From Candidatus Paracaedimonas acanthamoebae (GTDB lineage Bacteria > Pseudomonadota > Alphaproteobacteria > Caedimonadales > Caedimonadaceae), in the NCBI GenBank assembly GCA_000743035.1, contig CP008936.1, positions 1,650,001 through 1,682,000 of the forward strand: 32,000 bases of DNA, in the 5' to 3' direction. The translations under genes were made by a program, and so were the position numbers. Positions 1,798 through 23,894 of the stretch are shown piece by piece; the first letter of the stretch is position 1; every line of letters starts with the position of its first letter. The notes beneath the pieces were generated by a model, which was not told the origin of the DNA, did not search any database, and was given only the letters and a program-made list of their open reading frames with translations.

Positions 1798-2211
1798 ATG
1801 ATCTCGGTTAGCATCAATGATGGAAAATCTCTTTCGCCTGTGAGTGAAAATGAAAGCTCTCTTGAAAGCTCGTCCCTTGCAAACCATCTTCCTAAAAATA
1901 AGGTAGATCTTAATGAGCACCTCATCAAAAATCCGACAGCAACTTTTTTTCTTAGAGCTGCCAGTGATGCATTAAAAGGGGCCGGAGTTTTTAGGGGAGA
2001 TTTACTTGTTGTTGATCGTAGTTCTCAGCCAACCTCTGGCGATATTGTTATTGCGGAGCTTGATGGCGAACTTTCTGTCAGAAAATATAAAAAGAAAGAA
2101 TGCAAAATTCTTCTTTCCACAGATTATTCTCATATAGAGTTTTTTCACACCAATGATTCTAGTGAGATTCCTATATGGGGAATCGTTACAGCCGTTATTC
2201 GCTCTTTATGA
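1798..2211 (+). CDS. Peptidase S24 (LexA C-terminal/UmuD-like) domain protein. It has no N-terminal HTH, and the catalytic dyad appears substituted.
   Basis: 137-aa ORF with AAGAGG 8 nt upstream of the ATG. It aligns without gaps to E. coli UmuD from [24 protein letters not shown]...GDLLIVD...HGDIVIAAVDGEFTVKKL. The sequence here is VDLNEHLIKNPTATFFLRAASDAL...GDLLVVD...SGDIVIAELDGELSVRKY. Confidence 0.75.
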   Translation: MISVSINDGKSLSPVSENESSLESSSLANHLPKNKVDLNEHLIKNPTATFFLRAASDALKGAGVFRGDLLVVDRSSQPTSGDIVIAELDGELSVRKYKKKECKILLSTDYSHIEFFHTNDSSEIPIWGIVTAVIRSL

Positions 2212-2335
2212 TTTGGGTATACTCTGTTCAGAGGGCCTTAAATGTATCTGCAAAAATATAAAACTAATATCCTATCTTAGCTAAACTTAATGAGGACAAT
2301 TCCTCGACAGGTAATTATCGTAATGTTTAGCTTTG

Positions 2336-2376
2336 TTATCTATGTGAAGAGAGAACTAAATCTTGAACATAGATAA
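2336..2376. promoter_or_regulatory. Perfect 10-bp inverted repeat (TTATCTATGT-N21-ACATAGATAA) upstream of the LuxR/STAND gene. A second small palindrome, AATACT-TT-AGTATT, lies at 2393-2406.
   Basis: Read directly from the sequence. The repeat lies about 70-110 nt upstream of the ATG at 2446. Its function as an operator is only a guess. Confidence 0.3.
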
Positions 2377-2445
2377 AAACATACTTAGGATTAATACTTT
2401 AGTATTCTTTAAAAGCAATACACCAAAATAGGGTTTAATTGGGTT

Positions 2446-3996
2446 ATGCAAAATTTAAAAATGAATTTATTTCAAAAGATTGACCCTAAAGATCTAGAAA
2501 AAATAAATGGCGTAAAATTTACTTTTAGAGAAATTGATATTTTAGCTTTTATGTTTCATGGGAAATCAACTAAGAAAACAGCTTCTTTACTCTCAATCTC
2601 TCCGCGAACTGTTGAAAATCATGTGCGCAATATTATGGTGAAAGTTGAGTGTAATTCGCGCGAAGCTATAATAGATTTTATAGAAAAATCTAAAGAAGTT
2701 TATGTACTTAAAAAATATTATTCAAATTTAAGAATTGAATCAGCATTTAAAGAATGCTTAAGAGAAATTTCACTCTTAATGGAGAAGAAAGCTTTAAAGT
2801 GTAAAATTGAAACTATTGGGAATGAGTTTTGGGGCCATACGCTAGAAAGCTATCTCAAACTTGCGGGAGTTAACATTCTAAAGGGAAAAGAGCAAAAATC
2901 TAAAACTCTTGGGGCTTTCAAGACTGAAGAAGCTTCAATAGATTATGTACTTTGTCCTCTCACGAGCTTAGAAGCAGGGGAAATTTCCCTTATAAAAGAA
3001 AAATTTGGGTGTTATTTTCAACAAACTTCTCCATCGTTTCCTCCTTTAATTTTTCTCATTCAAAATAAAGAACTGAATAACTTTTCATCCCATCTGATAT
3101 TAAAAGACAACAAAAATGTAATAATGGTAGATTTTCAAGAGAATGATTATTTTTCATTTTTCGAACTTTTGAAAAAAATGCTAGCACCTCTTAGTTTAGA
3201 GAAAATAATTTTAAAATTTCTCAAGAAATGTGAAGAATTAAAGCTTACTTTAGAGACTGATTCTCTACCAAATACTCTAGCAGCCTCTTCTCCAGCGTTG
3301 AAACAAATCTCTCAAAATGTAGATGTAAATGATCATAAAAAGTTGAGATATTATTTAATAAGAGGACTCGCTTTTAGTCTTGTAGGGAGTTTGATCTTAT
3401 TTTTAGGCCTCTATCAACCTACAAACGTTAAACTTTCGTCAAAGAATATCATAAGATCTGACCTTCCTATTCCTGCTGAAACGATCCTTTTACCGCGTCC
3501 TCAAATACTCGCTCAAATCCAGGAAAAGTTAAGTAAAAAACAAGGCATTCAAGTTATTGCATTAGTGGGAATAGGAGGCGCTGGAAAGACAACAATTGCT
3601 CGCCAATATGCGCGCTTACAAAAAACAAATGTTATATGGGAAATAAATGCAGATACGAAAGAAAGCTTAATTAATTCATTTGAGAATCTTGTGTATGCTC
3701 TTTGTAAAACAAAAGAGGAAAAAAAGATATTAAGAGATCTTCAAGAGATAAAAAACCCTCAAGAAAGAGAGGAAAAAATAGTCCTTCTCTTGAAAGATAA
3801 GTTAAAAGCAATTTCAGAATGGTTGTTAATCTATGATAATGTTGAGAAGTTTACAGATATTCAGAGATATTTTCCTTATGATCCAATAAGTTGGGGGATG
3901 GGGAAAGTAATTATCACAAGTAGGGACAATAATATTGAAAATAACAGTTATGTGAGTCACGCTATTCAAGTCAAAGAATTAAGTATTAAGTATTAA
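2446..3996 (+). CDS. N-terminal fragment of a LuxR-HTH / NB-ARC (STAND NTPase) / TPR protein, truncated by a frameshift.
   Basis: - LuxR/GerE-type HTH: FTFREIDILAFMFHGKSTKKTASLLSISPRTVENHVRNIMVKV (aa ~25-68).
- Hydrophobic segment: GLAFSLVGSLILFLGLY (aa ~307-323).
- Walker A: GIGGAGKTT (nt 3568-3594).
- Walker B-like: LLIYDNVE.
- Sensor-like: KVIITSRD.
- The ORF stops inside the NB-ARC domain. Confidence 0.85.
   Translation: MQNLKMNLFQKIDPKDLEKINGVKFTFREIDILAFMFHGKSTKKTASLLSISPRTVENHVRNIMVKVECNSREAIIDFIEKSKEVYVLKKYYSNLRIESAFKECLREISLLMEKKALKCKIETIGNEFWGHTLESYLKLAGVNILKGKEQKSKTLGAFKTEEASIDYVLCPLTSLEAGEISLIKEKFGCYFQQTSPSFPPLIFLIQNKELNNFSSHLILKDNKNVIMVDFQENDYFSFFELLKKMLAPLSLEKIILKFLKKCEELKLTLETDSLPNTLAASSPALKQISQNVDVNDHKKLRYYLIRGLAFSLVGSLILFLGLYQPTNVKLSSKNIIRSDLPIPAETILLPRPQILAQIQEKLSKKQGIQVIALVGIGGAGKTTIARQYARLQKTNVIWEINADTKESLINSFENLVYALCKTKEEKKILRDLQEIKNPQEREEKIVLLLKDKLKAISEWLLIYDNVEKFTDIQRYFPYDPISWGMGKVIITSRDNNIENNSYVSHAIQVKELSIKY
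3982..3995 (+). repeat. 7-bp tandem duplication, AGTATTA|AGTATTA, that creates the stop and frameshift between the two STAND ORFs.
   Basis: The sequence reads GAATTA AGTATTA AGTATTA AAGAAAAA. Deleting one copy gives GAA TTA AGT ATT AAA GAA AAA CTA ATT CTT TTT ACT GAA ATT ATG, which joins ...QVKELSIK to EKLILFTEIMRIGN... in one frame. Confidence 0.85.
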
Positions 3997-4024
3997 AGAA
4001 AAACTAATTCTTTTTACTGAAATT

Positions 4025-5749
4025 ATGCGAATTGGAAATGTGCACCATTCTGAAATTAAATCTAAGAAGTTTTTGGACAACATTCCTCCTTTTCCTTTAG
4101 ATGTATCTACAGCAGCTTATTATTTAAAAGCAACAAATGTTTCTTTAGAGGGATATCTAAATCATTTAATTAGTTATAACAAGGAATTTGCAGCAACTCA
4201 GGAACATATCCTTAAGGAAGCCTCAGACTATACAAAAACGCGATATGGTATAATTACCTTATCTTTAAAAAAAATTATTGATACACAAAAAGAATTTGAA
4301 CCATTATTATTATTAATTAGCTTGTTAGATTCTCAAAACATCCCTAAAGCATTATTAGATGCTTGCGGAAATAGTTCACTTATTGATAGTCTTTTTTATC
4401 ATTTAAATAAGTATTCATTGATTGTTAATGAGTCTTATAGGAATTCAATTCCTGTATTTTCCATACACCGAAGCACTCAAAAAATAAGTTTGGCTTACCT
4501 CAAAAAAACCTTAGCCTTAGAGAAAAACAACCCTCTATTAGATAAGGTTGCTCATATATTTGAAAATTATGTGACAGAAATTATAGATAAAGAAGACTTT
4601 TTACAAATGAAGCTTCTATTATCTCAGGGCGATGCTTACTTAAGGCATGATGACCTCCTCAGAGATAATATTAAGAACAGTCTTAAAAGCTCTCTAGGAT
4701 GTATATATTATTATTTAAGTGATTATATAAAGGCTAAACAATTTCTTGAGGAAAGTCTTGTAAACTTAATAAAAGACTACCATAAAAATCATCATAAGGT
4801 CGCACGTATTTTAATGTATTTAGGAAATGTCTATAGAACCCTTGGGGATTGCGAAAAAGCAAAAAATTTACTTGAAGAGAGTCTTTCGATTTATGCTCAA
4901 TATCCTGGTAATTATATGGGGAATGGACGTGCTTTAGGATATTTGGGAATTATTTATAGAGGGCTAGGTGACTACTCAAAGGCAAGAAGCTTGCTTGAGA
5001 AAAGTCTTGGAATATATCAAGAGCATTCACAGAACAGTATTGGACATGCCTGGATTTTATCGCATTTAGGAAATACTTATCTAATATTAGGGAACTATGA
5101 GCAAGCGCGGATTTTACTTGAACAAAGCCTTGATATCTATAAAAAGCATTCTGAAGATTATGTTGGTGTTTCTTGGGTTCTTGGATATTTAGGAGATGCT
5201 TATAGAGCTTTAGGCGACTATAAAAAATCTCAAGAGTTACTTGAGCAAAGTCTTATTATTTGCCGAAAACATTTTCCTGAAAATCATGTCTATATCGCTT
5301 CTTCTTTAGCATATTTGGGAAATCTACATGCTGAAATAGGAGAGTATCAAATGGCACGCAACTTATTGGAAAAAAGTCTTGAAATTTCAGAAACAAGCTA
5401 TGGGAAGAATCATATACAAACGGCACGTATTTTGAGAAGTTTGGGACGAATTTATCTTTTGGAAGGAAAAATGCAAGAAGCTGAGAATTTCCTTCAAAAT
5501 TCTTTAAATATCTTTCAACAACATAAATATAGCGAAAGTTATATGTCTCTGGAAAACTTAGCAGACTTATATCTCATGAAATTTTCACAACAGCCTCTCT
5601 CCAATGATAGGCAGAAGTTTCATCAATCAAAAAATCAAGCTCTTGAGTATTTAAGGCAAGCGTTAGAGATTGTTAAAGCGCATTTCCCAAATGATTCTTC
5701 TCATATCATTAGAATTCAAAACAAATTAATGAATCAAGGCATTAAATAG
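4025..5749 (+). CDS. C-terminal fragment of the same STAND gene: the rest of the NB-ARC domain (GLPL-like motif) plus about 8 TPR repeats.
   Basis: - IPPFPLDVSTAAYYL matches the NB-ARC GxPLA motif.
- The repeated 40-42-aa units (LGNVYRTLGDCEKAKNLLEESLSIY, LGIIYRGLGDYSKARSLLEKSLGIY, LGNTYLILGNYEQARILLEQSLDIY, and others) are TPR_12-type.
- The frame stays open upstream of the ATG at 4025, back into the duplication. Confidence 0.85.
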   Translation: MRIGNVHHSEIKSKKFLDNIPPFPLDVSTAAYYLKATNVSLEGYLNHLISYNKEFAATQEHILKEASDYTKTRYGIITLSLKKIIDTQKEFEPLLLLISLLDSQNIPKALLDACGNSSLIDSLFYHLNKYSLIVNESYRNSIPVFSIHRSTQKISLAYLKKTLALEKNNPLLDKVAHIFENYVTEIIDKEDFLQMKLLLSQGDAYLRHDDLLRDNIKNSLKSSLGCIYYYLSDYIKAKQFLEESLVNLIKDYHKNHHKVARILMYLGNVYRTLGDCEKAKNLLEESLSIYAQYPGNYMGNGRALGYLGIIYRGLGDYSKARSLLEKSLGIYQEHSQNSIGHAWILSHLGNTYLILGNYEQARILLEQSLDIYKKHSEDYVGVSWVLGYLGDAYRALGDYKKSQELLEQSLIICRKHFPENHVYIASSLAYLGNLHAEIGEYQMARNLLEKSLEISETSYGKNHIQTARILRSLGRIYLLEGKMQEAENFLQNSLNIFQQHKYSESYMSLENLADLYLMKFSQQPLSNDRQKFHQSKNQALEYLRQALEIVKAHFPNDSSHIIRIQNKLMNQGIK

Positions 5750-6308
5750 AACAAAGTAACACTCGTTTCTGTTATTCAACCATGTAAATATATAAAGTAT
5801 TTTTTGATTTTTATCGAATTTTCTTGAATTTTGTATCATATTGTGGTAGCCTGATAGTATAGATGGTTAGATGATTTTCATCTCTTATGAAAACCTAAAA
5901 GATCTTCATAATTCTTCCATAAAATCCAACTGTCTCATTAAAATAATAAGGGAATTAAAAAAACCTAAGTTATTAAAGAGAATAAGCCTTTTAACGCTCT
6001 TTTTGAGCGAATACCCTCTCTTTGCCTTTTTCAGAGGTCGATTCCTCTGCAAAAAGAATAACTGAAGCGTCCTGATCAAACGCTTAACCCAGAAAATTTC
6101 GAATCTCTGGGGAGAGAAAAAGGTATGCCAACAGTTGAGTAAATGAGGATAATGATAGGCATGTCGTGAAATGGAAGAAACGATCTGTCCTGACCTCAAC
6201 CTCTCAAACAAAAGCAAAAGGCTTCCCAATTCCTTCCTGTGCACAAACTGCACAGGAAGGGAGAGGGGAAAACAATAAAAACAAGAAACATAAACAAGGA
6301 GATATAAA

Positions 6309-6581
6309 ATGATAAAAACACATGAACAAAAACCAAATGGTAAGAAAGAACTAGGGGCACAAAAACGTCTGGACCCATCAACAATCAAGAAAAGGGTGCT
6401 CAGTGCTGTTTTGAGGAGAGAAACAGGTTGTTTCAATCCCTCTCAAAGAGACAAACGTATGAAGGTCTATCAACAGAGCTTCAACCGCTGGTGGGACCTG
6501 ATTTTTGATCAGGGAAGCAGGAAACGAATGGCGATAGGCAACCAAGAGATGTGCATAGGTACCAGGAGATCCTATGCATAA
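6309..6581 (+). CDS. Possible small basic protein (90 aa) of unknown function. Doubtful.
   Basis: AAGGAG lies 7 nt upstream of the ATG (acaAGGAGatataaaATG). However, it sits in a strongly purine-rich, otherwise non-coding stretch where SD-like strings arise by chance. I recognise no domain. Confidence 0.25.
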   Translation: MIKTHEQKPNGKKELGAQKRLDPSTIKKRVLSAVLRRETGCFNPSQRDKRMKVYQQSFNRWWDLIFDQGSRKRMAIGNQEMCIGTRRSYA

Positions 6582-6638
6582 GACGTAGGATTATATGGAA
6601 GGGGTATAAGATATGAGTCAGAAGAGAAAAACACATGA

Positions 6639-6710
6639 ATCAAAAATTATCCCCTGACAAATAGACCCTAGGATGTTCTTTATGTTGGCGTAACGAATAA
6701 CCTAGTATAA
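6639..6710 (+). pseudogene. Relic of a GIY-YIG (UPF0213/YhbQ-like) nuclease gene.
   Basis: One frame reads ...YPLTNRP*DVLYVGVTNNLV*. The VLYVGVTNNL string is the signature N-terminal GIY-YIG block (Y-[IV]-L-x-n-LY-[IV]-G-[VI]-T-N-[ND]-L). An in-frame TAG lies at 6669-6671 and a TAA at 6708-6710. No recognisable continuation follows. Confidence 0.4.
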
Positions 6711-6855
6711 CGTTGCTTGCTAAAGTTGATCTTAACAAAGATAAGGACGGTTTTTCGTTTGTCTTGTAAGATAAAGAAGGTTTTAATGGCTACTTAAAAT
6801 ACGAGCGTTTTCTGTGCGGTATTAAACATACACGCCTGAGAGTTATAAGTATGAA

Positions 6856-7419
6856 TCAACTTTTGCTCATATCAATATCAGAACCAACAAATGGGATTTC
6901 TTTATTCCAAAATTTGTTTAGGCTATCCCACCATAAGCTAGTTTGAGACGTAAGTATTTTTGAAAACTTATCTAAATCATCGCTTCCGGTTAAACGAAAC
7001 TGTATTCCCTCTAATATGCCAATAACAGCCCACTCACTTACTTTCTCATCAGGATGTTTAATAAGACAATGAATCAAAGCTGAGATATTCCTTAATTCTT
7101 TCTGTAAAGGAGGCTTTACTTTAGGGTTATTGCTTGCCTCCTTGTATAAAGCAACGATATACTCTGCAAAGTCTCCGGCAATACTATAAGGCAAGTCCTT
7201 ATCATCAGAAGATAGAAAAATTTCTTCAAAAGCAGGACAAGTTTGTAAAACAATTTCATAAATTTGGCGTAAGGTAACCTTTGTAAAATATGAACTTTCA
7301 TACCTTTCTGTTAAGCTTTTACGCATTTTAATAAAGGAAACTCCATTCTTTTCAATAAACTCACCTTCAGGAATATATGAATTTTTATCAAAAAATTTAA
7401 TGCAGAGTCTACAGCACAA
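6856..7419 (-). CDS. Last ~35 aa of a GNAT fold followed by a ~150-aa domain of unknown function. This is the downstream part of a frameshifted GNAT-fusion gene.
   Basis: After its TTG start the ORF begins CCRLCIKFFDKNSYIPEGEFIEKNGVSFIKMRKSL. From KFFDKNSY... onward this is a typical GNAT C-terminal strand/helix (xFYxKNGYxxxGE...MxKxL). It then continues with TERYESSYFTKVTLRQIYEIV...WAVIGILEGIQ...WWDSLNKFW, which matches nothing I can name. Confidence 0.6.
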   Translation of the reverse strand: MCCRLCIKFFDKNSYIPEGEFIEKNGVSFIKMRKSLTERYESSYFTKVTLRQIYEIVLQTCPAFEEIFLSSDDKDLPYSIAGDFAEYIVALYKEASNNPKVKPPLQKELRNISALIHCLIKHPDEKVSEWAVIGILEGIQFRLTGSDDLDKFSKILTSQTSLWWDSLNKFWNKEIPFVGSDIDMSKS

Positions 7420-7664
7420 CAGTAAATTTCTTTAAATCCTTTTAGCCAGGCCCAATCTTCACAATATGTTAGAATTCTTGAGCCTAAACCTTCATTGCGC
7501 ATATTATTTACGACAACGATATATTTTATTTCACAATAGCTATCCTCAGGCACAAGAATCGCCATAGCTATTATTTTATTTTCTTTAATGGCTGTTATTT
7601 GTTTATAAGGCTTGTTCTTTGAACAGTTTTTTTGAATTTTTAATACTTGAACTTCGTTCGACAA
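7311..7664 (-). CDS. GNAT N-acetyltransferase, N-terminal part. It runs out of frame after residue ~90.
   Basis: The acetyl-CoA motif region reads IKYIVVVNNMRNEGLGSRILTYCEDWAWLKGFKEIYCCAVDSAL. After N90 the translation (FLIKIHIFLKVSLLKRMEFPLL) loses GNAT character, while the -1 frame continues the fold. Confidence 0.7.
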   Translation of the reverse strand: MSNEVQVLKIQKNCSKNKPYKQITAIKENKIIAMAILVPEDSYCEIKYIVVVNNMRNEGLGSRILTYCEDWAWLKGFKEIYCCAVDSALNFLIKIHIFLKVSLLKRMEFPLLKCVKA

Positions 7665-8257
7665 TTCTATCCACGCACATCTGTTTTATTATAGTTATTA
7701 TCTTCGTAGCTTGTGATTTTGAAGGAGATGTTATTCAATCTTAACATGATAAATTTTATGGAATAATAGATATTTTATTATTTTCTCTACAATTCCCAAT
7801 ACCTTGTCAACGACGATTTAAAATTGATACACCTCTGTTAAGAATTTTTAACTATTTTAATGGGTTATGATCTTGCATTTCCTTTTCTGATGTCAATTTG
7901 GTTGAGATGAGCCCTGCTTTTTCCTTTATCATCCCTGGTCTTCTACCGGGGATCTCAGAAAAACATGAAGATGCTGATAAGTGCTAAGAAACCTCAATTG
8001 GAAGAAGCGCGTGATTCATGCGCCTTCGCTTGAGTTAAAAGAAATTTGCTAAAAATTTAATAAAATTTTAACCTTTGATTCATGTTTTGTTAATCAATTC
8101 AAAAAATGAGATATAAGTTTTTTATCGCAAAAAATGATGTAAAAACGAATAAAATCAATAACTTTTCACTTGAAATTAAAATTTCATCTGTTATGCTAGT
8201 TTTTAGATAGGCATGCGGGGGATGCCTTAGCCTCACCAAAGATCCAAAGACGAGTTA

Positions 8258-8266
8258 GGGGGGGGG
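8258..8266 (+). repeat. G9 homopolymer tract in an AT-rich non-coding region.
   Basis: Read directly: gagttaGGGGGGGGGaacttc. Confidence 0.9.
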
Positions 8267-8624
8267 AACTTCAGATAATGATAATAATAAAGAGAACACA
8301 GGGAGAGCTAAAAGGTCACAGCATCACCCCCACTAAATTTTACAGTCTTTATTGCTTAAAAAGCTGCTGAAGGCTCAGGACTATTTGATGGTTACAGCAG
8401 AAGATGAGTATCAGGAAATCTTAGATGATTTTTGGGTACAGTCAGAAAATCTTTGGGAATCTGTTGGGACGCAGTTAATTGAAGCAATTAAAGCCCAAGA
8501 TGTAGTTTAGATTCTTGTCGTATGTGGCACTCATGATTATCTCAAATGCAAGTTCTTGATAGAACAAAATTATCTATTATTCTGAAGGGGTTGTAGAAGG
8601 CATTGTATAATTAAAATCGACCTT

Positions 8625-9047
8625 TTGAAAAACCATCCACAAGCTATACCAATGCTTGCAAATATTTGGCATGAAGTTTTAGGTAAAATCTGGATGCCAA
8701 AGATAGGAATTAAAGAAATTGAATCTTTGTATGATGGAGAGTTGAATCATGATATGCCTCTTACTTACATTGCGCTAGACGGTGAAATTCCTGTAGGTTC
8801 ATGCACATTGCAGCTAAATGAGGATATTCGGCCAGATTTAGGACTTTGGATTAGTGATTTGACCGTTGATCCAGAATATCAAAAACAGGGGATCGGCAAA
8901 ATGCTAGTTGATGTCACAGTCGAGAAAGCAAAAGAGCTTGGCTTTGAAAAGCTTTACTTATTTGCCTTTGATCCTACCATACCAGAGTATTATGGGCTCC
9001 TTGGATGGAGAAAATTGGGGAGGATAAATTTAAATCTCATCCTGTAA
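8625..9047 (+). CDS. GNAT family N-acetyltransferase, with a non-ATG start and a probable C-terminal frameshift.
   Basis: The motif A region is LWISDLTVDPEYQKQGIGKMLVDVTVEKAKELGFEKLYLF...YYGLLGW. TTG is the first canonical start. The frame is open back to the TGA at 8583-8585 with no ATG or GTG. Confidence 0.75.
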   Translation: MKNHPQAIPMLANIWHEVLGKIWMPKIGIKEIESLYDGELNHDMPLTYIALDGEIPVGSCTLQLNEDIRPDLGLWISDLTVDPEYQKQGIGKMLVDVTVEKAKELGFEKLYLFAFDPTIPEYYGLLGWRKLGRINLNLIL

Positions 9048-9214: not shown

Positions 9215-9907
9215 CTAACTTGATTTTATCAAAGACCCATCCTTGGGAGAATAAATATAAGGGCCTTCAATGCGTTTACCTTTCTCATATACCATATAAG
9301 AAGCAACATTTCCGTTTTCAAAATACTTCGTCGAATTTCCTTGCAGAAGCCCTTGTTCATAAGCTTCTGTTTGTAAAAGATTCCCTGATGGGTAATAAGC
9401 CTTCATAATGCCGTGCTTAATGCCCTTTTCATAGGGAATAGTTGCCGTAATGTAACCTAAGGGATTGTAGGTGATCATTTCCCCATGCATTTTCCCTTCG
9501 ATATAAGGAACTTCATGTTGAAGAGCGCCCCCTTTCGTATAAAATTTCGCAACCCCATGAATCTTTCCTTTTCGATAGGGAATTTCTGCTGAAATTATTC
9601 CTTTCTCATAGGTTTCAGCTAATCCCTCCAAAAGTCCTTCTTTAAAGTGATATTTACGGTGCGGTTTCCCTTCTTTATCGTAAACAAGAGTGGGGCCTTC
9701 CCGTAAACCATTCGAGAAGGTCGCTCGTTTAGTAATATTTCCTTTATTATCATAATATTCAGCAACTCCATTTCGTTGCCCCTCTTTAAAAGGAATCCGT
9801 CTTAATAGCTTTCCTTTTGCCGTTTTCATCTCTTGAACACTATCAAGAATCTCTGCGGTTTTTTGGCTCGCCGGAAGTTGCATTTGTTGAAGTTGCGTGT
9901 TGCTCAT
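9215..9907 (-). CDS. MORN-variant (MORN_2) repeat protein, YwqK-like.
   Basis: About 7 tandem 23-24-aa repeats of the form Y..G.....(a)..Y..G..hG. Examples: GQRNGVAEYYDNKGNITKRATFSNGLREGPTLVYDKEGK..., YRKGKIHGVAKFYTKGGALQHEVPYIEGKMHGEMITYNPLG..., YEKGIKHGIMKAYYPSGNLL... It has no signal peptide. It starts 15 nt after the vgrG stop on the same strand. Confidence 0.8.
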   Translation of the reverse strand: MSNTQLQQMQLPASQKTAEILDSVQEMKTAKGKLLRRIPFKEGQRNGVAEYYDNKGNITKRATFSNGLREGPTLVYDKEGKPHRKYHFKEGLLEGLAETYEKGIISAEIPYRKGKIHGVAKFYTKGGALQHEVPYIEGKMHGEMITYNPLGYITATIPYEKGIKHGIMKAYYPSGNLLQTEAYEQGLLQGNSTKYFENGNVASYMVYEKGKRIEGPYIYSPKDGSLIKSS

Positions 9908-9922
9908 TTTCTTTCTCTATTT

Positions 9923-12900
9923 TTAAGCTAATGTAACTGCTGCGCCTGTTATCTGAGTACTGCCTTCTCCTCCTATGGTTGCTGTAGCCTCACCTGCAAC
10001 TGTGACAACGGCTCCTGACATTGTCACACCTGCAGTTCCTTCAAGCATAAGCTCAGTTTCAGCCACCACATTAACTTCAGAAGCGTTCAATGTTGTTTCG
10101 CCCGTCGATTCAAACGTGGTTGCTCCCTCACTGGTAAGGGTTAAGCCAGCTGCGGACATTGTCGTTTCTCCTTCTGCAGAGATCGTCATCGCGGCACCTG
10201 CATTTACTGTCATTTCAGTGCCAGACTCAAGCGTTGTTGCGGCTTCACTTTGAAAAGTTGCAGCGCCTGTGCTTTTAATAGTGACCGTGCCGCCTACAAT
10301 AATTTCAAAATTACCATCAATCTTAAGCGTATAGTTGCCTGTAATTGACTCTTCTACATCCCCTGCCACTTTAATTGTTTGGTTTGCTTGTAAAGTTACG
10401 GATTGGTCACCTTGAACCATAATTGCTTGTGTGCCTTGTTGAATAGAAATTTCTTGGTTACCTTCTTCAACAATTGTTGTGTAGTTGCTTTTAATTTTTT
10501 CAAAGAAAAGTCCTTCTTTCACAAGAAGAGTTGCATCCCCATTTGTTAGCTCTTTGTAATCATTCCCTTCTTTTAGAACAAGAGAGTGATCCCCTTTTGT
10601 CAGGTGAGTGGTGATATTCCCTTCACTTAAATGAGTGTGGATATTTCCTTTTTCAAGCGTAAGTGTTGCATCCCCTTTCTCAATAAAATGATCCGAATTT
10701 CCTTCTTTTTGTTGGATAAAATAATCCCCTTTGTTCAGAAGTTCTAAATTATTTCCTTCTTCAATCTCAAGATAACGATCACCCTGGTTGATAAGGATGT
10801 TATAGTTGGCATCTTCCTCGCTTTTAAGCTGCATTGTACGACTTCCTTTGAGAAGAGTAAGATTATCATCTCCTTTCCCTGCAGGAAGATCTTGGCCTTT
10901 TGGTGTCGTTTTAGAGACCGACTCATCTTCTCCGGCTAAAACAACTTCTCGATTCCCACGATCAATCCACCACCAATAGCTTCCTTTTTTAACCCAATCA
11001 TTAACCGTCTCATTCACTCGTATTGTTAAATCCTTTTGTGAATGAAAGAAGACCTCTTCTGATTCTTTTAAATCTTCAAATCTTAACTCATTAAAGCCTT
11101 CTGGTCCTTTCTTTGTTGACCGGCTCTTAATCGTACTCTTTGTGGGCTGTTCAGGAAGATATGGCGGCATGTTATCTGAATTATAAACAGTCCCAATCAC
11201 GAGAGGACGATCCGGATTCCCTTCAAGGAACGTTACAACAACTTCCATCCCAACCCGTGGTGTGAAAAGAATCCCCCAATTATTTCCTGCCCATCCCTCA
11301 GCCACCCGAACCCAACAAGAGCTATCTTGTTCATCTTTAATATTTCCATCCTCTTGAGCGTTGTGAGTTTCTGATGGATCTTGTTCGTTTTGTGTTTCTT
11401 TTTCTAGCTGGCTTCCTTTACCGACATCAGTCCCGTTCGATTGGATATCCCAATGAAATCGAACTTTAATGCGACCATATTGATCTGTCCAAATTTCTTC
11501 ATTTTTGGGTCCAGTAACACGAGCTGTTTGGGTTGAATAAATTTTAGGCTTGGGTGTCTTGATGCCAGTTTTATAAGCAATACTAAAAGGAAATGCCGTA
11601 AACTGATTGCGATAATGACTATCATGAACCCCTAGACCACCTGTTATATTGGCTTCATGAATCACAGTATGAAGAACATAAAGCTTATTAACATCTTTTC
11701 GAGTATGGCCTCGCATTTGAAACTTATAGCCAGGTGCAAAAAAGGGAATGGTTGATGTTGCATCAACTGATTTACTCGGTAATTCATCCGCTTGAATTCT
11801 CAATGTTGAAACTGTTTCTAGCTTAACTTGTTTGGGCAGGTCCTCATGATCAAAAAGCCCAGGATAAGAGTAAACCTTTCCCCCTAATCCAGTCCCATTT
11901 GATAAGCTCGAAATCTTGGTCGAAGCCGTCGTAAAATTGTAATCAACAAGAGAATGAGATTTGGGAACTACTCGCTCAAGAACTTTACAAGTGATCAGCT
12001 TATTGAAATAATCAACGCCTGCAACGGCTTTCTCAAATTCCGCTGTTTGAGCCCCTGGGCAATCCTCATGACTTGAAGGCGCTTCACCCAAAACTAAAGT
12101 ATGTTGCCCATGCTTGTGCTTAAAATAGTAAAAAATTCCTTCTTCTTCGAGAAGACGACTTATAAAATCAAAAGAGCTTTCATTATACTGAACGCAATAT
12201 TCACGTGGAGTGCGACCACAATCCTTCGTTTTGTCTTCGATTTCAAGGACACCATTTTCTCTCAAAACTTGTTTGATGATATCAATGGCTGATTGGTTTT
12301 GAAAAATACGACAATCTTGCGTGAATTTTAGCATCCAGAGTTGAGGATAAATCTTTGCTTCATAATAAGTAACATTGTCATCACTTTTACGCGCCGTGTG
12401 AAGCTGCGTAAATTGCCCAATAACACCATTAAAATAACGAATTGTTGGGCTCTCTTCCTGAGGAGAAGAATCTTCATCTGCTAGAAAATCTTGGTCTTGG
12501 TTAATTCCTCGTTCTTTAATATAGCGCTTTCCCTCCTCCGCAGTATCTTCTTCACGGTATTGCTTAGCCCCTTGCTGTCCATCTTTTCCCTGAGAAGCAT
12601 TGGTATGTTTTTCATGACAATCAATTGAAATTGTTACCGTTTTCCCAATCATATCAGCAAAATTAATCGCTGGGTCATCTGAAATCATAAGAACGGTATA
12701 CTCAAAAGGTTCTGAAATCGTTTCAATCCCCTGAAATTGTTGCAAGACGAGATGACGATTTCTATTGTCTGTGGTAGAAAAATCGCTTTGAGATAGAGAG
12801 GTGCGCCGGTCCATTTGCCGGCGTTCTACCGCTCCTTCGCGGGACTCACTATTTTTACGCTGATTTTCAAACCGCTTTTCTGTTTTTGAAGAAATGTCTG

Positions 12901-13012
12901 TCCTGCGATGAAGCGGTAGATTTTCTGGAAGACTTGATTCTTCTTCACCTTGATAATCAATATCAATTTTTAGCGAAATAGGTTTTTGACGTACAAGCGT
13001 TGTTGAAACCAT
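9923..13012 (-). CDS. vgrG: Type VI secretion spike protein VgrG (gp27-like + gp5 OB-fold + beta-helix), 1029 aa, with unusual insertions and a long C-terminal helix extension.
   Basis: - N-terminal VgrG signature: FQGIETISEPFEYTVLM.
- gp27 core: IRYFNGVIGQF...YYEAKIYPQLWMLKFTQDCRIFQNQSAIDII...FDFISRLLEEEGIFYYF.
- gp5 OB-fold: GRIKVRFHWD...SCWVRVAEGWAGNNWGILFTPRVGMEVVVTFLEGNPDRPLVIGTVYN.
- Then EGN/KGD octad-like beta-helix repeats.
- GGAGG lies 3-4 nt before the ATG at 13012. Confidence 0.9.
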   Translation of the reverse strand: MVSTTLVRQKPISLKIDIDYQGEEESSLPENLPLHRRTDISSKTEKRFENQRKNSESREGAVERRQMDRRTSLSQSDFSTTDNRNRHLVLQQFQGIETISEPFEYTVLMISDDPAINFADMIGKTVTISIDCHEKHTNASQGKDGQQGAKQYREEDTAEEGKRYIKERGINQDQDFLADEDSSPQEESPTIRYFNGVIGQFTQLHTARKSDDNVTYYEAKIYPQLWMLKFTQDCRIFQNQSAIDIIKQVLRENGVLEIEDKTKDCGRTPREYCVQYNESSFDFISRLLEEEGIFYYFKHKHGQHTLVLGEAPSSHEDCPGAQTAEFEKAVAGVDYFNKLITCKVLERVVPKSHSLVDYNFTTASTKISSLSNGTGLGGKVYSYPGLFDHEDLPKQVKLETVSTLRIQADELPSKSVDATSTIPFFAPGYKFQMRGHTRKDVNKLYVLHTVIHEANITGGLGVHDSHYRNQFTAFPFSIAYKTGIKTPKPKIYSTQTARVTGPKNEEIWTDQYGRIKVRFHWDIQSNGTDVGKGSQLEKETQNEQDPSETHNAQEDGNIKDEQDSSCWVRVAEGWAGNNWGILFTPRVGMEVVVTFLEGNPDRPLVIGTVYNSDNMPPYLPEQPTKSTIKSRSTKKGPEGFNELRFEDLKESEEVFFHSQKDLTIRVNETVNDWVKKGSYWWWIDRGNREVVLAGEDESVSKTTPKGQDLPAGKGDDNLTLLKGSRTMQLKSEEDANYNILINQGDRYLEIEEGNNLELLNKGDYFIQQKEGNSDHFIEKGDATLTLEKGNIHTHLSEGNITTHLTKGDHSLVLKEGNDYKELTNGDATLLVKEGLFFEKIKSNYTTIVEEGNQEISIQQGTQAIMVQGDQSVTLQANQTIKVAGDVEESITGNYTLKIDGNFEIIVGGTVTIKSTGAATFQSEAATTLESGTEMTVNAGAAMTISAEGETTMSAAGLTLTSEGATTFESTGETTLNASEVNVVAETELMLEGTAGVTMSGAVVTVAGEATATIGGEGSTQITGAAVTLA

Positions 13013-13098
13013 TTTCCTCCCCTAACAGATGAATCCCCTTAATCGATCAAGTTTAAAGAACTTTTAAGGCGACTTCAAGTTTTGCAGTGAGAATAAAT

Positions 13099-13434
13099 TT
13101 AAGAATTTCCGGGTTTTGGGCTAAAATGGTTGGGAAACTTATTGGGAACATCTTTCCACTCATCAGCATCACTTGGAGATTCTCCTTTAAGCGTGATACG
13201 GGGCCACTCAAGAGCATATTTTTGATTCATCTCAACCCAGAATTCAGACCCATCAACTGTATCTGCTTGAATCGCATCAATCGGGCATTCAGGGACACAC
13301 ACCCCGCAATCAATACATTCTTCAGGATTGATCACAAGCATGTTTTCGCCTTCATAAAAACAATTGACAGGGCAGACTTCAACGCAATCCATATACTTAC
13401 ATTTGATGCAAGCATCCTTAACAATATAAGTCAT
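13099..13434 (-). CDS. fdxA: 7Fe ferredoxin ([3Fe-4S][4Fe-4S], Azotobacter FdxA type).
   Basis: [55 protein letters not shown] carries the canonical Cys pattern CxxCxxxDCxxxCP...CxxCxxCxxxCP. Length is 111 aa. Confidence 0.9.
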
Positions 13435-13447
13435 TTTTTCCTCCTGA

Positions 13448-14242
13448 TTATTGAGGGCTAGCCCTATATGCCATTTGGATAAGCCGCCGTGCGACTATAC
13501 GCATAGGATCAATAAAGTTTTCTCTCTCAGCATTCTCGAGATCTTCAAAAGCCAATGGGAATTCTGTGCACCCTAGAATAACTCTTTCAGCACCTTGATA
13601 TCTCAATGTATGCACATAATTTCTAAGAAGTTCTTTCGTACGCTCTGAAGCTTTTGAAAGTGCTTTCAAGCCATCGACAGGATTATAAATGGCATCATCA
13701 ACTTTTATCTGTTCTTCGTTTGCCACTTGGATTAGTTCTATGCCTTGTGCTTCAAGCGCTTGCGCGTAAATTAATGTTTTACGGGTTCCCGATGTCGATA
13801 ATAGCCCTACTTTTTTAATGTTGGGAAAAGTTTCAGCGATCCCCAAGACTGTTTCTTTTACAAAATCATAAAGAATAAACCATTCATCAAATTCTTCCTG
13901 TTTAATACGATTCATAAGATCATTAAATAAGATAGGTGCATGAAAAGTATTGCAGGGGACAACACTGATAATAGGCCGTTTGAATTGCTTTCCTACAGAA
14001 ACAGCACCTTTTACAATCTCAATCAGGACATCAACGGGATTTGGTTGATTTTGATCAAAAATATAAGTCGCACGATCTGGAATAATAGAAGGAAGCGCGA
14101 AATGCAAAACGTCACAATGATCTTGGTCTTGGCCTATGTGACGCAACTTTTTAGTTTCTTCAATAATGAGGCCATGCAAGATTCGGCCTGCCTCAGGTCC
14201 CATCCCTCCAATAATTCCAATAATTGCAGCTTTTTGTAACAT
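13448..14242 (-). CDS. Aspartate racemase family protein (Asp/Glu/hydantoin racemase).
   Basis: [10 protein letters not shown] near the N-terminus, plus VVPCNTFH and ILGCTEFPL (the two catalytic Cys blocks). I prefer the ATG at 14242, which has AAGGAA 9 nt upstream, over the TTG at 14281 given in the ORF track. Confidence 0.8.
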
Positions 14243-16677: not shown

Positions 16678-16754
16678 TGGCGGGAGTGACGGGACTTGAA
16701 CCCGCGGCCTCCTGCGTGACAGGCAGGCGCTCTAACCAACTGAGCTACACCCCC
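16678..16754 (-). tRNA. tRNA-Asp (anticodon GUC) with encoded CCA.
   Basis: The minus strand folds as follows:
- GGGGGTG acceptor;
- TA;
- GCTC-AGTTGGTTA-GAGC D arm;
- CCTGC-CTGTCAC-GCAGG anticodon arm, loop C-U-GUC-A-C;
- GCGGG-TTCAAGT-CCCGT T arm;
- CACTCCC-G-CCA.
The acceptor pairs 7/7, with one G-U pair. Confidence 0.9.
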
Positions 16755-16831: not shown

Positions 16832-18244
16832 CTAATTACGCACTATAAAATCCTCATCTTTACAAAAACCTGGCGCACAACGTCCTACCATCTCATAAGC
16901 ATAATTGAAAGCATCCTCTTTAGCCTGATGAAAATCTTCTTTCCCTGGGATTTGAGGACAGAGAAATAAAGTCCCAAATTCAGTTTCTTCCCAATTAATT
17001 GACCTTAAATAGTCATAAAACGCTTCTTCATGCATTTGACTTATAGTAATTTTTGTATCTTCACTGTCTTCAGCATCTGCAAACCAACTTGCCTCATTCA
17101 TAAATGGCTGAAATTTTTTTGAAAACATTATTTCTTTTAAAGCTTCCCTGTAGGGAATTTCCTTTTGAGGAACATTGTCACTGGGAGCTGTCAGTTGCAT
17201 CCAATAATTTAGCAAGCGACTTTTCGATGGGATATTATAATGATAAAAGGCTTTAAATGTTGGTTCTTTTTTAAGAGAAACTGGACTGTTTGCAGGCTCA
17301 TTTTTTTGATTTGTATCCTCCGCAGCCACCGTCTGAACATGGATTTCTTTCTTCTCTGATGATGTACTTATTGTGCAAATTGAGCCTTCAGAAAGAGGAC
17401 TTTCAAGCTTTTCCTCTTCTAAAAACTCCTCTTGAGCAGACTTTTCTTGATCTTCTTCACGGAAAGATCCCAAAAGGGGGTCAGGATTAACAGGATCAGG
17501 TTCCATGGACGGCATTTCGTTTCCACCTTTTAGGTAAAAAGAAACGCTATCGTTGAGAGGTGCTAGATTTAAGGGATTTATACCCTCTTCAGTAACAGTC
17601 TGAGCAAAGGGATCTTCTTTTTCTGGCGTAGTCTCAATATTATGAGCTAAAGGCGCAGAAAGAGGATTTTTATGTTTTTGCTCCTCTAGCAAAGCCTTTA
17701 AAATACTTTGGGTGAAACTTTCTTGAACGTCTCCAAGAGAGGATACAAAGAGAGGCTCAGGATTAAAAGGATCAGATTTTATAAAATACATTTCATTCCC
17801 ACCTTTTAAATGAAAAGAAACGTCATTGCTCGGAAATACCGGCGAGGCCTTTAAAATGAGCGCTTCACTATCCATTATTCCAGGAAATAAATCACCATTA
17901 TTTTTCAAAACATTAACAATAAATTCGTGAGAATTTAAAGGAGATTTAAAAGGGCGCTCTATTTGTAGATCGGATGAAGCTTGCTTTGCTGAATCCCTAA
18001 AATAAATGCGAAAAAGAGGTAATACTTCCTTAAGGGCAGCTTCATAAGCTTGGTTAGTTTGTAGGTCTTCTTCTTGGATGTCATAAGAAGTGTTAGCAAA
18101 GTTATTTCTTTGAGAGTGTTGAGAATAATGGGCAAAAACAGCGATTTGCAAAAAAGTAATCATAAATAAAATGTTTGGAAATTCAGGTATAAACTTAAAA
18201 TTTTTAGTCAATGCCTGAAAAGTAAATTGCATGGCTTGTCGCAT
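16832..18244 (-). CDS. Hypothetical membrane-anchored protein (470 aa) with an internal duplicated motif. It is the only gene downstream of the cobalamin riboswitch.
   Basis: - It is a long open frame in AT-rich DNA.
- N-terminal hydrophobic segment: FPNILFMITFLQIAVFAHY.
- Two copies of [ND]DVSF[HY]LKGGNEM...DP[FV]NP[ED]PL.
- Acidic linker.
- Cys-containing C-terminal region: ...LFLCPQIPGK...GRCAPGFC.
- I recognise no family. Confidence 0.7.
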   Translation of the reverse strand: MRQAMQFTFQALTKNFKFIPEFPNILFMITFLQIAVFAHYSQHSQRNNFANTSYDIQEEDLQTNQAYEAALKEVLPLFRIYFRDSAKQASSDLQIERPFKSPLNSHEFIVNVLKNNGDLFPGIMDSEALILKASPVFPSNDVSFHLKGGNEMYFIKSDPFNPEPLFVSSLGDVQESFTQSILKALLEEQKHKNPLSAPLAHNIETTPEKEDPFAQTVTEEGINPLNLAPLNDSVSFYLKGGNEMPSMEPDPVNPDPLLGSFREEDQEKSAQEEFLEEEKLESPLSEGSICTISTSSEKKEIHVQTVAAEDTNQKNEPANSPVSLKKEPTFKAFYHYNIPSKSRLLNYWMQLTAPSDNVPQKEIPYREALKEIMFSKKFQPFMNEASWFADAEDSEDTKITISQMHEEAFYDYLRSINWEETEFGTLFLCPQIPGKEDFHQAKEDAFNYAYEMVGRCAPGFCKDEDFIVRN

Positions 18245-23648: not shown

Positions 23649-23894
23649 TTAGCGATTTATACCACTTTTATTTGCAATTTCCTTGACTTTGTCTTTGATC
23701 ATAGAAGCAAATCCTTGCTTAGCTCTTGAGGACTTATTGCTGCCTTTTTCAGTTCGACTATTGGATGAACCACCGCTATGAGAGGACTTCCCCCCTTTTC
23801 TTGCAATTTCTTTTACTTTGTCTTTAGGCATTGAAGCAAAGCCTTGTTTACCGTGTTCAGTGCGAGCAGCTTTTGTTCGATTTTTCATCACCAT
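23649..23894 (-). CDS. KGG-repeat general stress protein (YciG/Con-10-like).
   Basis: Two copies of KQGFASM[PI]KDKVKEIA[RN]K[GS]G in 81 aa. AGGAGG lies upstream. Confidence 0.75.
   Translation of the reverse strand: MVMKNRTKAARTEHGKQGFASMPKDKVKEIARKGGKSSHSGGSSNSRTEKGSNKSSRAKQGFASMIKDKVKEIANKSGINR

Follow-up and report, generated by a model that had tools for sequence, protein, structure and literature searches.

A vgrG-MORN gene pair of Candidatus Paracaedimonas acanthamoebae belonging to the dispersed Holosporales type VI secretion system, with a possible TseF-like partner of VgrG

Background

In Pseudomonas aeruginosa, a gene next to vgrG3 of the H3 type VI secretion system (T6SS) encodes TseF, a 178-aa protein with MORN motifs, which was detected in supernatants with its release reported as H3-T6SS-dependent, was pulled down with VgrG3 and VgrG1b, and binds vesicles containing the Pseudomonas quinolone signal (PQS), namely outer membrane vesicles (OMVs), and likewise two receptors, FptA and OprF; the homologues of TseF are described as 'mostly co-localised with a VgrG homologue' (Lin et al. 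2017, PMC5379069). Here we consider a pair of comparable design, a vgrG gene followed by a gene of MORN_2 repeats, in a stretch of 32,000 nucleotides from Candidatus Paracaedimonas acanthamoebae (contig CP008936.1, positions 1,650,001 to 1,682,000), and this whole stretch is called the window below.

Pairs of this kind have been described in other bacteria as well. In Paraburkholderia phymatum, the T6SS-b cluster has the order vgrG, YwqK gene, PAAR-like gene (Hug et al. 2021); for Holosporales, [ywqK-vgrG] is one of four conserved scattered T6SS loci of Bodocaedibacteraceae, Paracaedibacteraceae and Caedimonadaceae (Midha et al. 2021, ISME J), every diplonemid endosymbiont examined by George et al. 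(2020, Curr Biol) has a YwqK-family 'immunity' protein beside VgrG, and nearly all Holosporineae have kept the T6SS (2025 review). A first-pass annotation of the window, made from the sequence alone, knew of no described vgrG pairing of this sort; this has to be withdrawn, as the adjacency is published for Holosporales, for P. phymatum T6SS-b and for P. aeruginosa VgrG3-TseF, and the locus type is already known, not a new system. The window pair is of the same type as the Holosporales locus, which we confirmed in Caedimonas varicaedens and in a Paracaedibacteraceae genome. The Holosporales papers took the role of the MORN protein, immunity or antitoxin, from annotation alone, whereas the evidence given here favours a TseF-like partner, and no paper linking TseF with Holosporales was found in the literature searched.

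The best reading of the pair is that of the vgrG locus of the dispersed T6SS carried by Holosporales endosymbionts, and with a probability of roughly one half its MORN protein would be a TseF-like partner that is loaded on the VgrG spike and expelled with it. The Holosporales T6SS is believed to play a central part in the interaction with the host and has no known secreted protein, and as a candidate substrate or spike accessory of this system the MORN protein is the obvious one to begin with.

The two genes and their products

The pair occupies the following positions of the window:
9923..13012, minus strand: vgrG (tssI), 1029 aa, with a gp27-like domain, a gp5 OB fold and a C-terminal beta-helix
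9908..9922, minus strand: spacer of exactly 15 nt between the vgrG stop and the MORN start, TAA-aaatagagaaagaaa-ATG
9215..9907, minus strand: MORN_2 repeat gene (TseF-like), 230 aa, 8-9 MORN repeats

The identity of the first product as VgrG is given by TIGR03361 (TssI/VgrG, 494 bits, with the cutoff at 186) and TIGR01646 (352 bits), and Pfam adds Phage_GPD (PF05954), Phage_base_V (PF04717) and Gp5_trimer_C (PF22178). Its C-terminal part of about 340 residues (approximately 690-1029) is a gp5-type beta-helix up to the final residue, so that the 'VgrG C-terminal helix' spoken of in the first-pass annotation has to be replaced by this structure, and no toxin domain was detected by Pfam profiles, by the alignment of orthologues or by comparison of the C-terminal ends. 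No C-terminal motif specific to MORN-linked VgrGs was found, the ends of linked and unlinked VgrGs being alike. As an observation apart, the protein has three loop insertions of charged, low-complexity sequence, near residues 26-85, 134-188 and 526-563, which vary among species; the first two are missing from the orthologue of one relative ('Caedibacter sp.' 38-128, see below), and the third is present in all three species compared.

The second product matches PF07661 (MORN_2) with 60.4 bits (cutoff 29.6, E = 5e-17), its Pfam matches being limited to MORN_2 and SET7_N, with about 8 repeats of 23-25 aa across residues 26-215. A hydrophilic, disordered N-terminus of about 20 residues is followed by 8-9 beta-hairpin MORN repeats, and there is neither a signal peptide nor an enzymatic domain. 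The AlphaFold2 model agrees with this picture: residues 1-20 are disordered, and the remainder consists of all-beta hairpin repeats with 18 beta-strands, at a confidence (pLDDT) of 92.5. Among 111 profile matches no fusion of VgrG or PAAR with MORN was found, PF03544 and PF02493 being the only other Pfam families that accompany MORN_2.

As for solved structures, the best Foldseek matches to the model are MORN1 (Toxoplasma, Plasmodium, Trypanosoma) and junctophilins, which share the same beta-hairpin fold (6t69, 6t4d, 6t68, 7rxq; Foldseek probability 1.0, TM score 0.52-0.59), and the sequence profile matches the SETD7 N-domain and MORN4. The solved-structure search by sequence returned eukaryotic MORN-like domains only, with no structure of a bacterial MORN_2 protein or of TseF among them. 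The identity to these eukaryotic proteins (MORN1, junctophilins, MORN4, SETD7 N-domain) is just 12-17%, they are unconnected to secretion systems, and their ligand specificities are not transferable.

Conservation of the locus in Holosporales

The genes and the gap next to the pair are as follows:
13099..13434, minus strand: fdxA, 2x[4Fe-4S] ferredoxin with DUF3470 (Pfam)
13013..13098, minus strand: fdxA-vgrG intergenic region, 86 nt
8625..9047, plus strand: GNAT gene, convergent, the next gene beyond the MORN gene

In all of these calls, that is vgrG, the 15-nt gap, the 230-aa MORN gene on the same strand and the two flanking genes, the open reading frame (ORF) coordinates bear out the first-pass annotation. 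Its further statement that the pair is inserted and orphan does not stand, as shown by the comparison with two Holosporales metagenome-assembled genomes from a scan with one genome per species, 'Caedibacter sp.' 37-49 (L001) and 'Caedibacter sp.' 38-128 (L002). The order efp-suhB-HAD-racemase-fdxA-vgrG-MORN is kept in both of them, in L002 also with secA further upstream, with orthologue identities of 79% (L001) and 91% (L002) for VgrG and of 77% and 87% for the MORN protein, and the racemase-fdxA-vgrG-MORN part recurs on three metagenomic contigs (L014, L015, L018). In this genus-level syntenic block fdxA is the conserved upstream anchor of the pair and itself lies outside the T6SS. Beyond the MORN gene, the DNA differs from species to species: in the window it holds the convergent GNAT gene, a DUF7674 gene and a low-GC STAND/TPR block, and in L002 two Imm32 genes. 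Since the synteny is kept upstream and the variable DNA begins after the MORN gene, the pair lies at the border of a conserved block and is not an insertion. Moreover, comparison between species shows purifying selection on both genes, the ratio of nonsynonymous to synonymous divergence (dN/dS) being 0.03-0.10 for the MORN gene and 0.08-0.09 for vgrG, which argues that both are maintained by selection and are not chance ORFs.

It may still be asked whether the pair is a recently inserted, horizontally acquired island in a genome that has no functional T6SS. The window does lack any other T6SS gene, as the first-pass annotation had said: among ORFs of at least 100 aa, profiles gave no match to a T6SS core protein, Hcp, PAAR/DUF4280, DUF4123/DUF1795/DUF2169 or a toxin, and among the short ORFs (30-100 aa, intergenic), judged by eye and not profile-scanned, nothing is Hcp-, PAAR- or DUF4280-like. 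Furthermore, the DNA beyond the MORN gene is low in GC, variable and partly degraded. Against this, the GC of the pair (0.38-0.42) matches the housekeeping side of the window, the racemase-fdxA-vgrG-MORN block is syntenic across three 'Caedibacter'-like species separated by a synonymous divergence (dS) of 0.5-1.5 or more, and in these families the T6SS core genes are scattered over four or more loci according to published analyses. Being in conflict with synteny, composition and literature alike, the island reading was rejected as most improbable, and a lone vgrG beside housekeeping genes should be regarded as the normal genome architecture of Holosporales.

Outside the genus the linkage is found again, with different neighbours. 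In Caedimonas varicaedens (L005) vgrG is followed after 7 nt by a 215-aa MORN_2 protein with 43% identity to the window protein, in a Paracaedibacteraceae genome (L006) by one of 216 aa with 29% identity, and on a Joint Genome Institute contig (L008) by a 202-aa homologue with 30% identity (E = 2e-36); each of these three pairs lies in a different gene neighbourhood, no DUF4280 or PAAR gene is called beside any of them, and the neighbourhood of a further contig (L017) is also unlike that of the genus. Altogether, MORN orthologues stand directly after vgrG in L001, L002, L005, L006, L008 and L014-L018, and the same-strand order with a gap of 1-92 nt is seen in five Holosporales-type lineages. 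The adjacency, for which the first-pass annotation had proposed a check in relatives, is thus kept in the genus, in Caedimonas, in one Paracaedibacteraceae genome and in two metagenomic lineages.

In the metagenome scan with 41 MORN relatives, all five with an identity of at least 34% have vgrG directly upstream, several of these being the same species as loci already known, and of the generic MORN_2 loci, 16 extend 2 kb or more to that side and none of these has vgrG there. A contig (L057) with genes for a TLC ATP/ADP translocase and a Fic protein, which for this reason probably comes from an intracellular bacterium, has at 6001-6639 a gene for a 212-aa MORN_2 protein with 28% identity to the window protein and no adjoining vgrG. 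As this MORN gene is unlinked, the linkage to vgrG is a property of the orthologous group and not of all MORN_2 proteins.

Relation to TseF and to canonical T6SS clusters

When plasmid records were searched by tblastn with the MORN protein, one match was a P. aeruginosa record with the H3-T6SS (L013, NZ_CP137515), where the genes run in the order tssH, two further genes, tssI (vgrG3), a 178-aa MORN gene and DUF4280, with vgrG at 3954-5960 and the MORN gene at the TseF position (5971-6507) on the same strand; judged by position and size, the 178-aa protein is TseF/PA2374. This record is filed as a 91-kb 'plasmid' yet bears H3-T6SS genes of chromosomal type, and the gene at 5971-6507 has the name 'toxin-antitoxin system YwqK family antitoxin' from the NCBI annotation pipeline (PGAP). 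The same arrangement is met in other clusters: two metagenomic ones (L055, L056) both read tssF-tssG-clpV-vgrG-MORN-DUF4280, the order vgrG, MORN_2 (240 aa), DUF4280 was verified on P. phymatum pBPHY01 (L010), and an Azospirillum chromid (L011) has clpV-vgrG-MORN. The TseF-like group can be described as standalone, repeat-only MORN proteins of about 180-245 aa that have no signal peptide and are encoded directly after vgrG on the same strand, and the window protein fits this description.

Compared with VgrG3-TseF (PA2373-PA2374), the window pair shares the standalone MORN_2-only protein directly 3' of vgrG on the same strand, the missing signal peptide, and a VgrG of the plain beta-helix type with a similar C-terminal end. 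It differs in that TseF, at 178 aa and about 6 repeats, is shorter than the window protein with its 230 aa and 8-9 repeats, that TseF is encoded within a complete T6SS cluster beside a DUF4280 gene, and that its known ligands PQS, FptA and OprF are Pseudomonas-specific. Similarly, P. phymatum T6SS-b (Bphy_5985 vgrG, Bphy_5986 YwqK, Bphy_5987 PAAR-like) shows the order vgrG, MORN_2, DUF4280, the same as in L056, and differs by being a full T6SS cluster with a PAAR-like gene in a free-living or nodulating betaproteobacterium.

The TseF-like reading draws on the vgrG linkage, the order in the canonical clusters, the TseF precedent, the fold, the selection and the T6SS context of Holosporales. For the pair itself linkage, fold, lack of a signal peptide, selection and absence of a toxin are established; VgrG binding and secretion we infer from TseF, and the target is a guess. 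By analogy with TseF, the MORN_2 protein would be a cytoplasmic protein, probably made from the same transcript as VgrG, which probably binds the VgrG spike non-covalently and probably leaves the cell with it upon contraction of the sheath. Outside the cell, one may guess that the elongated MORN beta-sheet would serve as a binding module for a lipid, a membrane or a protein of the protist host or its vacuole. The idea of the first-pass annotation of a functional tie between VgrG and the downstream gene is upheld, and its option of a VgrG-loaded, repeat-only effector comes closest to TseF, the sole experimentally studied vgrG-linked MORN protein; what has to be dropped from that option is the claim of novelty.

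Several points weigh against this reading. The relationship to TseF rests on gene order and architecture and has no diagnostic sequence signal, since the identity of the window protein to TseF (BLASTP, 27%, E = 1e-18) is no better than that to unlinked MORN_2 proteins, and a hidden Markov model built from the linked members of P. aeruginosa, Azospirillum and P. phymatum gives scores that track repeat number and do not separate linked from unlinked proteins. As unlinked MORN_2 proteins score about equally, this model of the linked non-Holosporales members was rejected as a test of orthology. In addition, the secretion of TseF was reduced, not abolished, in T6SS mutants (PMC5379069), and its ligand PQS is irrelevant to the bacteria considered here. 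No DUF4280 or PAAR-like gene lies beside the Holosporales pairs, unlike in the canonical clusters; the T6SS core of the source genome is seen through the 32-kb window only, the wider core being taken from the literature on the family; and the uniform conservation within one T6SS subtype resembles that of an accessory component more than that of a niche effector.

The last of these points leads to another possibility, namely that the MORN protein is a non-secreted accessory, such as an adaptor, a chaperone or an assembly factor of the VgrG spike, which stays in the producer cell, where its task might be to support the long beta-helix, to bring in a PAAR-like cap or to load an effector whose gene lies at another place. 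Its fixed place between vgrG and DUF4280 in core clusters of alpha-, beta- and gamma-proteobacteria is the kind of conservation seen for accessory genes and not for variable effectors, the endosymbiont genomes that are most reduced still have the MORN gene together with vgrG, and the fold is one of pure binding repeats with no catalytic domain. This is the main alternative and takes in the adaptor option of the first-pass annotation, yet we regard it as the less likely reading: TseF is found in supernatants in an H3-T6SS-dependent manner and has extracellular partners (PQS/OMVs, FptA, OprF; PMC5379069), no effector gene follows the MORN gene at any Holosporales locus examined, the next gene in the window being the convergent GNAT gene, and the protein matches no known adaptor family in Pfam (DUF4123/Tap-Tec, DUF1795/Eag, DUF2169).

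The TseF-like partner can be taken one step further, to a conserved TseF-type cargo or effector that is injected into the protist host and binds there a membrane lipid or a host protein, a proposal that we put forward tentatively and with somewhat less than even odds in mind. If it is true, this would be the one effector that even the smallest genomes have kept, the Holosporales T6SS would gain a first concrete substrate candidate, and for the vgrG-linked clade the family-wide 'antitoxin' label would be wrong.

The YwqK immunity label

This label deserves a closer look, as the first-pass annotation also offered the option of an orphan immunity gene, and more generally the MORN protein could be a YwqK-type immunity protein or antitoxin against a T6SS toxin that is borne by VgrG, lost, or encoded elsewhere. 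The protein does belong to the MORN_2/COG2849 superfamily, a repeat class shared with the namesake YwqK of Bacillus subtilis, which is regarded as antitoxin to the LXG toxin YwqJ and which we take to carry MORN_2 repeats itself. The two settings differ: YwqK follows an LXG deaminase toxin exported by the type VII system of a Gram-positive bacterium, and in the window the upstream gene is a toxin-less VgrG with no toxin nearby. The name was also used for Holosporales by George 2020 and Midha 2021, and two Imm32 genes just downstream of the pair in L002 indicate that the region is able to hold immunity genes.

Nevertheless, an immunity function seems quite unlikely. The VgrG carries no toxin domain and is a beta-helix to its last residue, no toxin gene adjoins the linked loci whose neighbours were inspected, and the protein has no signal peptide, which an immunity protein acting in the periplasm would need. 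Moreover, the strong purifying selection together with the lineage-wide retention speaks against an orphan relic, so that the orphan-gene option is disfavoured. As PGAP gives the same label even to TseF, a reported secreted substrate, the Holosporales 'YwqK immunity' name is probably an annotation carry-over, and where the gene follows vgrG, the name 'YwqK family antitoxin' (PGAP/COG) should not be taken as evidence of immunity.

Expression signals and other features of the window

Considering the expression of the pair, the 15-nt spacer is purine-rich and has a weak Shine-Dalgarno-like AGAGAAAG, and the scan for promoters and terminators gave no terminator-like site in it. The lack of a terminator makes it probable that vgrG and the MORN gene are co-transcribed. 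In front of vgrG, a strong Shine-Dalgarno sequence, GGGGAGG, can be read 5 nt before the ATG, while the same scan of the 86-nt fdxA-vgrG gap gave no convincing promoter or terminator and nothing above background; for this reason vgrG may be transcribed by read-through from fdxA, or else from an unrecognised promoter.

The housekeeping genes of the window comprise a DUF3576 gene, leuS-lptE, secA, efp, suhB and fdxA with DUF3470, with a GC near 0.39, and these features are indicative of an alphaproteobacterium; the genus is 'Caedibacter'-like, with a relationship to the Caedimonadaceae. Just beyond the MORN gene lies a variable and partly degraded region (5906-8624), with a 176-aa ORF of no family and a DUF7674 ORF (6856-7419) overlapping a truncated GNAT ORF (7311-7664), after which about 960 bp hold no ORF longer than 52 aa. 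Its counterpart in L002 has the two Imm32 (PF15566) genes on the opposite strand, at 13511-13753 and 13810-14058 of that contig. Further on, the low-GC block (1798-5749, plus strand, GC 0.30-0.33) contains the gene of an S24 (LexA/UmuD-like) peptidase and then that of a 516-aa LuxR(GerE)-NB-ARC STAND NTPase, which is directly followed by the gene of a 574-aa TPR protein. This DNA is not common to L001 or L002, and the NTPase and TPR genes together look like a split or two-part STAND regulator or a defence-like module.

On the other side of the pair, a 124-aa ORF (13087-13461, plus strand) runs antisense to fdxA, and a similar antisense ORF is seen in L002; most likely it is a chance open frame over the conserved fdxA. 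Between tRNA-Asp (16678-16754) and a PpiC/SurA-like gene there is a 470-aa ORF (16832-18244, minus strand) with no Pfam or NCBIfam match, and L001 and L002 have ORFs of 327-356 aa at the same position. Finally, a gene for an 81-aa stress protein with KGG repeats (PF10685) is located at 23649-23894 on the minus strand, between a beta-lactamase-like and an rluA-like gene.

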